From the sequence record NC_070987.1: 64,000 nucleotides of DNA; one strand, given 5' to 3'. Below the pieces are notes generated by a model. That model was given only the letters and a program-made list of their open reading frames with translations. It had not been told where the DNA came from and did no database searches. The DNA comes from Escherichia phage MN05. The translations under genes were made by a program, and so were the position numbers. This document shows positions 38,282 through 40,345 of this stretch, one piece after another. Numbering within the stretch: the first letter of the stretch is position 1; every line of letters starts with the position of its first letter.

Positions 38282-40312
38282 TTAACCTCTATTCAATGAA
38301 CATTTAGGAGAATTACAATAAACTTGATTCATAGAACCAAGCGTACAACTTTCAGCATCGCGCCACGGAATCTGCTTAAAACACTCTGAGCAGTAGCCGA
38401 GGGTTGACCACATGGCTTTGGTGAAGTCAGTGCTTCGGTTTCCATCGAAGCTGACAACAGTTTTGCGGAGAGCTGTTCGTGATTCAGGAAACACACCTGC
38501 TTTCTCAGCAGGTTCCTCCTTTTTTGGCTTAGTTGAGATTGCAAAAACACTGTTGCTACGTTTCTCAACATAAGCATCAACAACATCCTCCAGAGTGATA
38601 CCTGTCTGTTTCGCTGAGGAAGGTAATACAGTCATACGACCGATCATATCTTCAGTTACACGTAAAGCAAATTCAGGACGACGGGCGTTTGTTGTATCCG
38701 TTGCTTTAATCCATACATAACCATCTTTGATCGTAGCATTAGATATTTTCTTCTTTACTTCTACAGCGCAGGCTTTACAGATATCTTCACCACGAAGACG
38801 GCTGAGTTCTTCATCAAACTCATTCTCTGTTTTAACTTCACCGCAGATTTCACAAACACCAATAGGAGTTTCCTCCTCTTCTTCCTCTTTAGGTTTAGTC
38901 AAACCTTCCAGACATTCAGAATGCCAATAGCACTGATATGCGAAGACTGCTTTAGGTGCATCCTTCCAATCAATGTGTTTGTCACAACCACCACAATCAC
39001 CATGAGAGTGTGCTTCCCAGAACTTACGAGTGATAGTAACGCCATTCTTGTTGACGAAACTATCATTCATATCAAAAGGGATATCATCATCAAAGTCAGC
39101 AGTAGTTGATTCAGGCTCCTTTTTCTCCAGAGATGGGTCAACAAAACGACCTGCTGTGATCACTAAACGGACCATAGCATTGACTTCGGAGATGCAGGAT
39201 ACTGTCCCACGGTAAACAATTTTAGGGTCTTTCAGTGCGTCCTGATAAGCCTTAATGTCTACGTTATGAACATCACCTTCGATGTACTCTTGAGACTTCT
39301 CATCGTAGATATAACCAATCATTTTACCACGAGAAGGAACAGCACCGGCGGTTGCATAAGGAACAAACTCATGCGGAGTGATTTCCACAGTCATATCGCG
39401 GCGAATATCAATGTTTCGATCGCTTGCGATTTTGTTTTGACTTACCACTGCGTTTCTTCGACGAACGTCTGCCGCTGTCACCCCCGGCTTCGTGTCGTAA
39501 GGATTGCTTGTACTGCTTTTTGAGGAACTTTGATAGCTGCTTTGGCTGTAGTTGTTCGAGTAGTAATTGCCCCAACGATTGATTACCGTAAAAACCGGAA
39601 GCTCGTGGGCGACCTCTTCAACTAGAGTCATGCTGTTGTTTGACATATCAAAGATATATTCTGTACCAACTTTACATTCAAAGTGCTCATCAATTCGGTT
39701 TTTGTGAGACTTAGAACGCTTCAGAATCCACATCAACATGTCTTCTTCAGAAGCACCAAACCAATCTCTGTTACAACGTGCGAGATGGAATGGACGCTCT
39801 TCATTACGGATGATATGAAGACGGTTGTCAGAAGCATCATGCCAGATTAAAGTGAAAGCACCATCCAGCTTTTGAATAGTCTCTGCTGCACCAATAGTGT
39901 TAATAGAGTGGCAGATATTCTCACTATCTACCTCGAAGTTTTTACTGTCAGGTAACAGATCTTGGTCCATCAAGGTTCCGTTATGAACCAGAGTGATGTT
40001 ACCATGTTGGAAAGGATGGGCGTTCTTGGCGTTAACTGCACCTTTCGTTGCATGACGGCTGTGACCAACAATCCATGAAGGCGCTACAGTGTAAGCTGTT
40101 TCACCAGTGGTGTGTTTCTTGTACTCATCTTGAAGGATGAATGCGAAAGAAGGAAGTGCTTCTTTATAAGTGAAGACCTCCTTAGTGCTCTTACGCTGAC
40201 CAAAGATACCAGAGGAGTGTTGTCCTCGGAATACTCCAGCATAAAAGAGTTGGTTGAATACGTCTAAATCAGTGCTTGACAGATTACCGCCAGCTAATAC
40301 GATGCCACAAAT
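38282..40312 (-). CDS. Class-II (Ntn) glutamine amidotransferase-domain protein with Cys-rich C-terminal region; non-canonical start
   Basis: Conserved CGIV...RGQHSSG...GHSRHATKG..NAHPF...VHNG...DSE domain lies upstream of the track TTG start at 39973; the only in-frame codon before the catalytic Cys is ATT (40312..40310), preceded by SD-like AGGTGG and an in-frame TAG. Confidence 0.5.
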   Translation of the reverse strand: MCGIVLAGGNLSSTDLDVFNQLFYAGVFRGQHSSGIFGQRKSTKEVFTYKEALPSFAFILQDEYKKHTTGETAYTVAPSWIVGHSRHATKGAVNAKNAHPFQHGNITLVHNGTLMDQDLLPDSKNFEVDSENICHSINTIGAAETIQKLDGAFTLIWHDASDNRLHIIRNEERPFHLARCNRDWFGASEEDMLMWILKRSKSHKNRIDEHFECKVGTEYIFDMSNNSMTLVEEVAHELPVFTVINRWGNYYSNNYSQSSYQSSSKSSTSNPYDTKPGVTAADVRRRNAVVSQNKIASDRNIDIRRDMTVEITPHEFVPYATAGAVPSRGKMIGYIYDEKSQEYIEGDVHNVDIKAYQDALKDPKIVYRGTVSCISEVNAMVRLVITAGRFVDPSLEKKEPESTTADFDDDIPFDMNDSFVNKNGVTITRKFWEAHSHGDCGGCDKHIDWKDAPKAVFAYQCYWHSECLEGLTKPKEEEEEETPIGVCEICGEVKTENEFDEELSRLRGEDICKACAVEVKKKISNATIKDGYVWIKATDTTNARRPEFALRVTEDMIGRMTVLPSSAKQTGITLEDVVDAYVEKRSNSVFAISTKPKKEEPAEKAGVFPESRTALRKTVVSFDGNRSTDFTKAMWSTLGYCSECFKQIPWRDAESCTLGSMNQVYCNSPKCSLNRG

Positions 40313-40315
40313 TTT

Positions 40316-40345
40316 CTAATCCACCTGAAGGGTAAACCCTTTCAT
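40316..40345 (-). other. Nine-codon in-frame leader ORF (MKGFTLQVD-TAG) directly upstream of the amidotransferase Cys codon
   Basis: ATG with SD AAAGG; in frame with the GATase; separated from the Cys codon by TAG-AAA-ATT. Confidence 0.35.

Follow-up and report, generated by a model that had tools for sequence, protein, structure and literature searches.

An ATT codon as the probable start of a class-II glutamine amidotransferase gene in Escherichia phage MN05

A glutamine amidotransferase (GATase) gene of Escherichia phage MN05, predicted to encode a class-II (Ntn) enzyme with the nucleophile Cys1, almost certainly begins at an ATT codon that directly precedes the codon of that cysteine. The gene lies within the window, the whole 64,000-nt stretch of sequence record NC_070987.1 that was analysed, which comes from a phiEco32-like Kuravirus (Table 1). 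From comparative sequence analysis, we consider it probable (roughly 0.85) that the gene is intact, that initiation at ATT gives a Met-Cys N-terminus, that an upstream AGGTGG recruits the 30S subunit, and that an in-frame TAG is left undecoded. A preliminary description of the locus had noted that the gene lacks a canonical start and had named ATT initiation, amber read-through, termination-reinitiation, and a sequencing error or pseudogene as explanations. Its reading of an in-frame ATG...TAG-AAA-ATT-TGT on the minus strand is confirmed, with the frame open to the stop at 38284-38282, as is its first canonical in-frame start at 39973, a TTG at codon 113. Use of the ATT is already known at the level of annotation: CDS phi32_83 of the phiEco32 GenBank record (EU330206, NC_010324) is annotated from the same ATT, and Bas86 likewise.

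Table 1. Features of the GATase gene and its leader, as positions in the window.
Feature	Position	Strand	Remarks
Upstream gene, Amidoligase_2 protein	40392–41495	-	Pfam; part of conserved cassette
Stem-loop GUGCCUCU-GAUAA-AGGGGCAC	40364–40384	-	Fold; just 3' of amidoligase stop codon
56-nt identical block	40305–40360	-	Alignment of three Gordonclarkvirinae genera
Nine-codon mini-ORF ATG AAA GGG TTT ACC CTT CAG GTG GAT TAG	40316–40345	-	In frame with GATase; ATG at 40345-40343, TAG at 40318-40316; 3 nt (AAA) between TAG and ATT
Small hairpin, 3' arm touching 5' edge of SD	40326–40344	-	RNA folding
Shine-Dalgarno (SD)-like AGGTGG	40321–40326	-	8 nt upstream of ATT
ATT, inferred initiation codon	40310–40312	-	Position of ATG in orthologues; family census
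Catalytic Cys codon TGT	40309–40307	-	Directly 3' of ATT; then GGC ATC GTA (CGIV...)
TTG, first canonical in-frame start	39971–39973	-	Codon 113, counting Cys as 1
GATase CDS, full length	38282–40312	-	676 codons; stop 38284-38282

The earlier assignment of the N-terminal domain to the class-II amidotransferases is borne out by Pfam scores, which are 55.1 bits for GATase_6 (cutoff 27) and 27.4 bits for GATase_7 (cutoff 25), and by structural matches. A PDB search with the single GATase sequence gave no match and a profile search was needed; the family profile matched GlmS (E 7e-11) as well as PurF and AsnB structures, and its positions 1-125 align to residues 1-112 of E. coli PurF (1ecb), beginning at Cys1. 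Cys1-Gly2 is invariant or nearly so across the family, and the residues R28, H83/R85/T88/G90, H98-P99-F100, H109-N110-G111 and D128-S129 are invariant in the family alignment. The conserved motifs are an Arg, GH(N/S)R-AT-G, NAHPF, HNG and DS(E/D), whose residues we take, from alignment, to correspond to those of GlmS. By alignment, the catalytic set is present, with the Arg, an Asn-Gly oxyanion hole and an Asp that binds the substrate amino group. The GATase domain is followed by a Cys-rich C-terminal extension, and the gene belongs to a conserved amidoligase/GATase/ATP-grasp cassette. The stem-loop that follows the amidoligase gene is terminator-like with a weak U-tract; its stem varies between genera with the pairing preserved (GTGCC/GGCAC vs GCGC/GCGC), and the equivalent hairpins of relatives are GC-rich and have T-tracts.

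Orthologues read SD-ATG-TG(T/C)-GG, with the ATG in exact register with the ATT of MN05. They include Proteus YP1, Vibrio SJSY21, Cronobacter A24, Salmonella pSal-SNUABM-01, Aeromonas LAh_6 and Escherichia PJNS034, together with two IMG/VR contigs and four further phages of Pseudomonas, Vibrio and Alcaligenes. The preliminary description had held that a normal ATG-Cys start in orthologues would speak against an anomalous start; such orthologues were found, but only among distant relatives, and they mark the ATT as the start while the anomaly itself stands. Across 126 non-redundant family loci, the codon preceding the catalytic Cys is ATG (84), ATT (27), ATC (8), TTG (5) or GTG (2) and never another, so that ATT or ATC occupies the position at about 28% of loci. 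This set consists of the canonical starts and two near-cognates, which supports the position as the start, and because a Met-Cys N-terminus is obligatory, the start codon is pinned without ambiguity. ATT occurs at scattered places in a neighbour-joining tree of the family (18 state changes by parsimony, about 13 of them involving ATT), and ATT/ATC starts have evolved many times, an apparently new observation. No canonical in-frame start lies between the nearest upstream stop and the ATT at 16 of the first 18 ATT loci examined; at the MN05 locus the in-frame TAG is two codons upstream of the ATT, and the next canonical start falls within the catalytic domain.

Differences in SD strength accompany the choice of start codon. 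The mean SD pairing energy is -8.7 kcal/mol at ATT/ATC loci vs -6.8 kcal/mol at ATG loci (Mann-Whitney p = 2.6e-5), and 27 of 35 ATT/ATC loci have a spacing of 7-8 nt. At the equivalent position the sequence is AGGAGG in locus L035, GAGAGG (within GGAGAGG) in locus L126 and AGGCGG in Aeromonas phage BUCT695, while the AGGTGG of MN05 differs from the consensus AGGAGG in the fourth base, which counts against initiation at ATT. The SD proposed earlier for the ATT is present, although its spacing is 8 nt rather than about 7 nt. Overall, initiation at ATT with AGGTGG as the SD is favoured by the ATG of orthologues at the identical codon and by the recurrence of ATT/ATC.

We propose that initiator tRNA would read the ATT to give Met-Cys, and that removal of the Met would expose Cys1, the N-terminal nucleophile required by all class-II amidotransferases. 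The TAG would merely close the upstream frame. A strong SD, perhaps with the help of the adjacent hairpin, would compensate for the weak start codon, while some reinitiation may be contributed by ribosomes that finish the mini-ORF 3 nt upstream. Estimates of AUU initiation in E. coli range from about 1-2% of AUG (bioRxiv 10.1101/063800) to about 15% of AUG (PMC3592434). By analogy with the AUU of infC, the weak codon would reduce GATase synthesis or make it sensitive to IF3.

The small hairpin next to the SD, UGAA(A)GGG-UUUA-CCCUUCA, has its core AAGGG/CCCTT at 40341-40328 and a predicted stability of about -6 kcal/mol. In related leaders, the change in the BUCT695 hairpin is confined to the loop, the stem of L126 has gained a compensatory A:T insertion, and L035 forms a different stem in this place. 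In the first set, an SD-abutting hairpin was found at 12/18 ATT/ATC loci vs 2/63 canonical loci, and at 14/25 vs 2/59 after clustering at 60% identity; nearest-neighbour pairs were discordant 15 to 0. A second set of loci replicated the association weakly (3/17 vs 0/28, p = 0.048). About half of the ATT/ATC lineages carry the hairpin and about half do not. A small hairpin abutting the SD often accompanies ATT/ATC starts, an association that seems to be new and that was replicated weakly. In our reading, the hairpin is the conserved feature of the strongly conserved 5' leader, within which the apparent leader ORF lies, and it might stack on the SD helix or hold the SD free of other pairings. 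Larger RNA structures were considered and set aside. The minimum free energy of the 131-nt fold does not stand out from that of shuffled sequences (z = -1.7); in this fold, both BUCT695 substitutions disrupt the helix that would sequester the SD (GGUUUACC/GGUGGAUU), and the long-range pairing with codons 3-7 is unconserved.

The leader itself is extraordinarily constant. A 58-nt segment that includes the TAG and the ATT shows 100% identity among 95 Escherichia/Shigella phage records, each sequenced independently, and is unaltered in 7 related metagenome contigs. The 56-nt block of Table 1 is the longest identical run in a 3.6-kb alignment of three genera, the next longest being 21 nt; three-way identity over this alignment is 59%, and around the leader the genera are only about 82% identical (about 18% pairwise difference). 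This invariance of the leader is apparently also new. BUCT695 matches the 58-nt query at 91.4% identity, with only two substitutions from the mini-ORF ATG to the Cys codon, although its GATase is just 53% identical. The closer relatives L013 and L014 (GATase 66-67%) are without this leader.

An error in the sequence, a decayed gene, or a truncated product starting at the TTG is very improbable. The sequencing error and the pseudogene raised in the preliminary description are excluded by the identity of the start region in all 95 independent genomes and by the intact 676-codon frame. A start at the TTG would cost the protein its catalytic Cys together with roughly half the GATase domain; the 112 codons before it form an open frame for the conserved catalytic half. 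Several GenBank records do annotate starts downstream of the ATT, by 10, 11, 45 or 114 codons, and Pseudomonas phage K4 is likewise annotated too late, 14 codons after its ATC; in the WFI101126 record the CDS begins at a downstream ATG 114 codons after the ATT, near the TTG, with a similar loss. However, these truncation points vary from record to record, which marks them as gene-caller artefacts. Amber read-through from the leader ATG, with autocatalytic removal of a 12-residue propeptide (MKGFTLQVD-X-KI) to expose the Cys, is hardly credible either. The leader ATG is in frame, the 12 residues are close to the 11-residue propeptide of Bacillus subtilis PurF, and BUCT695 and L126 preserve the frame relation, but the frame from that ATG to the Cys is interrupted by the TAG at 40318-40316. 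A search for the suppressor tRNA that such decoding invokes returned, with ARAGORN, only a tRNA-Arg(TCT) in the window and no tRNA in positions 1-17000 of phiEco32, which are estimated to cover the part beyond the window. The suggested search for a sense codon at the TAG likewise found none in any relative: the TAG is kept in the 95 genomes, and L126 has two stops, TAG TAA. Both leader substitutions in BUCT695 are non-synonymous (F to L, V to A) and none is synonymous, which points to a constraint on the RNA rather than on the peptide. The ATG orthologues begin at Met-Cys and most ATT loci are without an N-terminal extension; in other lineages, too, ATT loci show no upstream frame. Ribosome hopping or frameshifting was dismissed on reading the sequence, in which no codon before the Cys could serve as a matching landing site and no upstream ORF has a frame within reach of a slip.

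Termination-reinitiation, also anticipated in the preliminary description, has more in its favour. Ribosomes translating the mini-ORF would melt the hairpin, stop 3 nt before the ATT, and be held for restart by the embedded SD. An AAGG lies 8 nt upstream of the mini-ORF ATG, the ATG, frame and TAG are invariant in the 95 genomes and BUCT695, and the stop-3 nt-AUU geometry equals the UAA GGU AUU of infC (PMC3592434); some other ATT loci have a real upstream gene that ends 4 nt before the ATT, L063 for instance. Against this, the homologous leader of L126 has CTG for the mini-ORF ATG, and in L035, which shares the SD, spacer and ATT, the sole in-frame upstream start is a 4-codon TTG ORF without an SD. 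Because these two loci lack the mini-ORF ATG, reinitiation is not required, and it persists as a possible contributor. BUCT695 has no SD for the mini-ORF, the hairpin pairs the U and G of the mini-ORF AUG, and at many ATT/ATC loci no ORF ends close to the start. Reinitiation as the main or obligatory route is judged unlikely. A universal coupling to an upstream stop was also discarded: stops lie 3-4 nt before the ATT in several lineages, and only some of them close a real ORF. A separate suggestion is that the extreme conservation reflects a second function of the leader, as an operator, a processing site or a remnant promoter, the operator partner being a phage RNA- or DNA-binding protein and possibly the Cys-rich C-terminus of the GATase itself. 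The conserved run includes the loop and spacer while the flanks diverge; ribosome binding on its own would not account for this invariance, which also counts against our preferred explanation; the leader is nearly kept in BUCT695 and absent from L013 and L014 in the face of the opposite order of GATase identity; and relatives have TTAAATGTAAA here, similar to the phiEco32 gp36 promoter motif tAATGTATAtA. Yet the kuravirus copy of that motif is degenerate (TTTAAAGGTTAAT), an Rfam search of the leader gave only sub-threshold chance matches (E 0.4-0.8), neither a sigma-70-like promoter nor a terminator was found in the leader on the gene's strand, and the window holds no second copy of the leader. 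We regard a second function as an improbable explanation of the conservation.

Initiation at ATT can be set beside several known systems. E. coli PurF and GlmS have a Met-Cys N-terminus, with the Cys directly after the start codon, and in Bacillus subtilis PurF an 11-residue propeptide is removed to expose the Cys. The MN05 enzyme shares with PurF and GlmS the Ntn fold, Cys1, the motif CGIV(G/L) and the adjoining start codon; it differs in having ATT for ATG and in its C-terminal partner, a Cys-rich extension instead of a PRTase or isomerase domain. Unlike in B. subtilis PurF, the propeptide frame is closed by a TAG. The synthetic bicistronic design that Mutalik et al. reportedly described in 2013 uses a short leader cistron whose coding sequence carries the downstream SD and which ends at the start of the downstream gene or beside it. 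The short leader ORF of MN05 likewise contains the downstream SD and has its stop adjoining the downstream start, but this arrangement occurs in nature, 3 nt separate the stop from the downstream start instead of an overlap, the downstream start is AUU, and the leader is a putative cistron, its ATG not being kept in L126.

The IF3 gene infC and pcnB are the only two confirmed AUU-initiated genes of E. coli (bioRxiv 10.1101/063800; PMC3592434). As in these genes, MN05 has AUU where orthologues have AUG and appears SD-dependent, and a low, IF3-sensitive efficiency would be expected by analogy. It differs in encoding a phage enzyme and not a translation factor, so that autoregulation of the infC type is inapplicable, and in the recurrence of ATT/ATC in about 28% of the family. 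The stop 3 nt upstream is a further likeness to infC (UAA GGU AUU vs UAG AAA AUU), although the upstream ORF is a 9-codon mini-ORF and not a real gene. At the thrS-infC junction about equal shares of initiation come from restarting ribosomes and from de novo events (PMC3592434), and given the match in geometry, reinitiation could contribute more in MN05 than our preferred explanation assumes. In Enterococcus faecalis ebpA, an ATT start attenuates expression (PMC4447247). There too the rare ATT, which lies upstream of the annotated ATG, was an in silico prediction, and the weak codon was proposed to lower expression; the organism and protein are different, and the MN05 start is fixed by the catalytic Cys instead of resting on mutagenesis alone.

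The hairpin and the mini-ORF, whose functions are putative, figure in a broader proposal, possible but on the doubtful side, in which hairpin-SD-8 nt-AUU(C) is a dedicated translational control module, repeatedly evolved in phage GATase genes, whose hairpin stabilises the 30S complex, and the kuravirus version with its invariant 56-nt leader is also a natural bicistronic device. If so, the hairpin might act, for example, by stacking on the SD/anti-SD helix, the module would make a weak, IF3-proofread codon usable, and GATase output would track the host initiation machinery during infection. The mini-ORF could then couple GATase synthesis to ribosome traffic or glutamine supply. The single Gln codon of the mini-ORF, CAG, overlaps the SD.

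Among the papers covered, which do not include those on the genome and transcription of phiEco32 (PMC2587145, PMC3275717), a full-text search brought up no relevant account of phage ATT start codons. Proteomics of phage SU10 lists the protein at 63.8 kDa (PMC4281155), which is taken to be a truncated model (563 aa), so that N-terminal peptides could not be matched. Gene callers drop the catalytic half of the GATase in many deposited phage genomes, with starts 10 to 114 codons late, and homology annotation or expression constructs derived from such records would yield a dead enzyme. As a natural comparative data set, the family bears on the tolerance or exploitation of weak start codons, and the GATase leader is a directly testable system in an E. 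coli phage. The surrounding amidoligase/GATase/ATP-grasp cassette is poorly understood, and our results imply that selection has repeatedly favoured low or conditional synthesis of its GATase.

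The window derives from a Kuravirus of the phiEco32 type (97-98% identity with phiEco32 and TH38) and carries a conserved cassette encoding a COOH-NH2 ligase, a 205-aa protein, an Amidoligase_2 protein, the glutamine amidotransferase (GATase), two small ORFs, and an enzyme of the ATP-grasp type. The N-terminal domain of the GATase belongs to the class-II (Ntn) amidotransferases, with Pfam GATase_6 and GATase_7 both over cutoff. A profile built from 11 family members matched GlmS (E 7e-11) as well as PurF and AsnB structures, and because the E. coli PurF alignment to this profile begins at residue 1, the family Cys1 is the counterpart of the PurF nucleophile. 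Residues of catalytic type do not vary within the family (R28, H83/R85/T88/G90 of a GH(N/S)R-AT-G motif, HPF, HNG, and DS). The C-terminal third contains several CxxC...CxxC pairs (e.g., CGGCDKH...C, CEICGE...CKAC, CSECFKQ...C) for which Pfam returned no match; zinc-ribbon-like modules of the same kind occur in the GATases of Aeromonas phage BUCT695 and locus L035. In Escherichia phage myPSH1131 (MG983840.1, 60124-60796), tblastn matched the N-terminal domain in two pieces (673 nt vs 597), which suggests an insertion or frameshift in that record.

Re-reading the minus strand confirmed the preliminary description: the GATase gene, open for 676 codons, lacks a canonical start, and its catalytic Cys is preceded by ATT and an in-frame TAG that closes a nine-codon mini-ORF. 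A sequencing artefact or pseudogene is ruled out, as a 58-nt query (leader, TAG, ATT, and TGT) is 100% identical in 95/95 Escherichia/Shigella phage records containing it. Kuravirus-like metagenome contigs keep the region as well, with a synonymous TGT to TGC in the Cys codon as the sole difference seen. Over 3.6 kb, Kuravirus, Suseptimavirus, and Nieuwekanaalvirus share 59% three-way identity, and no stretch identical in all three is longer than this leader (56 nt); the second longest has 21 nt.

Features in and around the GATase gene, and the tRNA gene of the window (all on the minus strand)
Feature	Coordinates	Detail
Mini-ORF	ATG 40345-40343, TAG 40318-40316	ATG AAA GGG TTT ACC CTT CAG GTG GAT TAG, followed by AAA
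Leader hairpin (predicted)	40344-40326	UGAA(A)GGG-UUUA-CCCUUCA, about -6 kcal/mol
Shine-Dalgarno (SD) site	40326-40321	AGGTGG, 8 nt 5' of ATT
ATT	40312-40310	
Catalytic Cys codon	40309-40307	TGT, followed by GGC ATC GTA
First in-frame ATG/GTG/TTG	39973	TTG, codon 113 counting Cys as 1
GATase stop	38284-38282	
CxxC...CxxC region	38282-39100	
Three-genus identical run	40360-40305	56 nt
Stem-loop	40364-40384	Directly after amidoligase stop
Degenerate promoter-like motif	40349-40361	TTTAAAGGTTAAT
Terminator-like hairpin	40212-40227	GAGGACAACACTCCTC and T-rich tail, in GATase N-terminal coding region
tRNA-Arg	49879-49954	Anticodon TCT

Initiation at ATT with AGGTGG as the SD, one of the explanations offered earlier, is well supported by sequence comparison. 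Distant orthologues read SD-ATG-TG(T/C)-GG, with ATG precisely where the window has ATT (phages of Proteus, Vibrio, Cronobacter, Salmonella, Aeromonas (LAh_6), Escherichia (PJNS034), Pseudomonas, and Alcaligenes, and IMG/VR contigs). Drawing on two IMG/VR locus sets, a number of GenBank phages, and a few contigs of phage-like sequence in bacterial assemblies, we scored the codon immediately 5' of the catalytic Cys at 126 loci, each with a unique upstream sequence. The codon was ATG in 84 loci, ATT in 27, ATC in 8, TTG in 5, GTG in 2, and any other codon, ATA included, in none; three loci whose tblastn match began elsewhere than Cys were left out and read ATG-TGT on inspection. This restriction argues for a start codon, since a non-start codon would vary more widely. 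About 28% of these non-redundant loci thus carry ATT or ATC (L055, L058, L063, L069, L072, L073, L085, L097, L099, L108, L109, L112, L154, L155, L161, and others), including an ATC in the PA11-like Pseudomonas phage K4 (L119:198-200). ATT is spread across a neighbor-joining tree of the GATase domain, on which parsimony requires 18 changes, about 13 involving ATT, and in 16 of the 18 ATT loci examined first, the frame contains no canonical start from the nearest upstream stop to ATT. Predicted SD pairing is stronger at ATT/ATC loci (mean -8.7 vs -6.8 kcal/mol; Mann-Whitney p = 2.6e-5) and spacing is narrow (7-8 nt in 27/35), which we read as compensation for a weak codon. An initiator Met followed by Cys is cleaved off, and E. 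coli PurF and GlmS are synthesized with a Met-Cys N-terminus; starting at ATT would therefore yield exactly the required mature N-terminus. The family may favor ATT/ATC because the Cys-Gly-Ile/Leu-Val codons are fixed, leaving the start codon and SD as the main means of tuning, and the preference for ATT over ATC without ATA would fit reading by initiator tRNA with a third-position pyrimidine mismatch.

The other three explanations proposed from the sequence either lack support or have at most an accessory role. Amber read-through from the leader ATG, yielding a propeptide that is then removed, is not supported: within the window ARAGORN found tRNA-Arg(TCT) alone, in phiEco32 positions 1-17000 (by estimate the part beyond the window) it found no tRNA gene, hence no suppressor, the TAG is never a sense codon in relatives (the related leader of L126 has two stops, TAG TAA), and BUCT695 has the only two mini-ORF substitutions, each of which changes the amino acid (TTT to TTA, GTG to GCG). 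Termination-reinitiation from the mini-ORF is a plausible contributor to ATT initiation, as the UAG-AAA-AUU geometry is the same as that of the thrS-infC junction (UAA-GGU-AUU), where reinitiation and de novo initiation have about equal shares (PMC3592434). However, it cannot be required, because L126 replaces the mini-ORF ATG with CTG, L035 has an identical GGATTAGAAAATTTGTGG sequence yet no comparable mini-ORF, BUCT695 lacks the mini-ORF SD, and the U and G of the mini-ORF AUG are base-paired in the predicted hairpin.

This leader hairpin is the conserved structural feature, and its 3' arm extends up to the SD's 5' edge. BUCT695 has its hairpin substitution in the loop, L126 (AAGGGA-TTTA-TCCCTT) has a stem into which a compensatory A:T pair is inserted, and L035 has an unrelated stem (TCAAGCT/AGCTTGA) at the same place. 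Across the family, ATT/ATC loci often have such a hairpin, of lineage-specific sequence and ending at -14 to -16. It was found in 12/18 ATT/ATC vs 2/63 canonical loci in a first set (Fisher p = 2e-8), in 14/25 vs 2/59 after clustering at 60% identity (p = 1e-7), and in 3/17 vs 0/28 in a second set gathered after the idea arose (p = 0.048); in nearest-neighbor pairs where only one member had it, that member was ATT/ATC in 15 and canonical in 0. The association appears real but partial. The hairpin could act by stacking on the SD helix, insulating the SD from other pairings, or protecting the 5' end. Larger folds predicted around the ATT were neither conserved nor better than shuffled sequences, an Rfam search of the leader gave no match, and no second leader copy was found within the window.

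The kuravirus leader is invariant even in loop and spacer. From mini-ORF ATG to Cys codon, BUCT695 differs from the window at two positions (91.4% identity over the 58-nt query) with a GATase only 53% identical, whereas L013 and L014, with GATases 66-67% identical, have plain ATG starts; this suggests leader transfer or an extra function, e.g., as an operator. The stem-loop after the amidoligase keeps its pairing with genus-specific sequence (GTGCC/GGCAC vs GCGC/GCGC), and at this place more distant relatives carry hairpins that are GC-rich and have T-tracts; the amidoligase and GATase genes are therefore probably separated by a terminator. Relatives L006, L013-L015, and L017 carry TTAAATGTAAA 15-25 nt 5' of the GATase ATG, resembling tAATGTATAtA, the motif given in PMC4281155 for promoters of the phiEco32 sigma factor gp36; the kuravirus counterpart is degenerate. 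Cronobacter A24 has TAGATGAAAGGA at the same place, serving as SD region, and the kuravirus mini-ORF ATG therefore probably derives from old untranslated leader. L126 and L125 (NZ_JANLCJ010000514.1 and NZ_JANLCJ010000320.1; 624 and 771 bp), from an assembly of the actinobacterium Herbiconiux daphne, encode GATase N-termini with 60% and 48% identity to the window protein, one with a kuravirus-like leader, and look like phage contamination rather than Herbiconiux genes.

The core finding is known at the annotation level and handled inconsistently. The phiEco32 GenBank and RefSeq (phi32_83) and Bas86 records already begin the CDS at the same ATT, and other records start late, by 10 (SU7), 11 (BUCT695), 14 (Pseudomonas K4, ATC start), 45 (KBNP1711), or 114 codons (WFI101126), removing the nucleophile from the model. 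The WFI101126 record (MK373770) also places a 'terminator' (L003:2971-2992) at about the position of the terminator-like hairpin in the GATase N-terminal coding region, probably because the true start was missed. Proteomics of SU10 detected the protein with 9 peptides at a given 63.8 kDa (PMC4281155), which we take to be a truncated 563-aa model. The GATase gene joins the small group of genes initiated at AUU as a new, well-supported member, and the phiEco32 reference already annotates it that way. Recurrent ATT/ATC starts across the family and the combination of hairpin, SD, and AUU appear undescribed in the literature searched and are of moderate interest.
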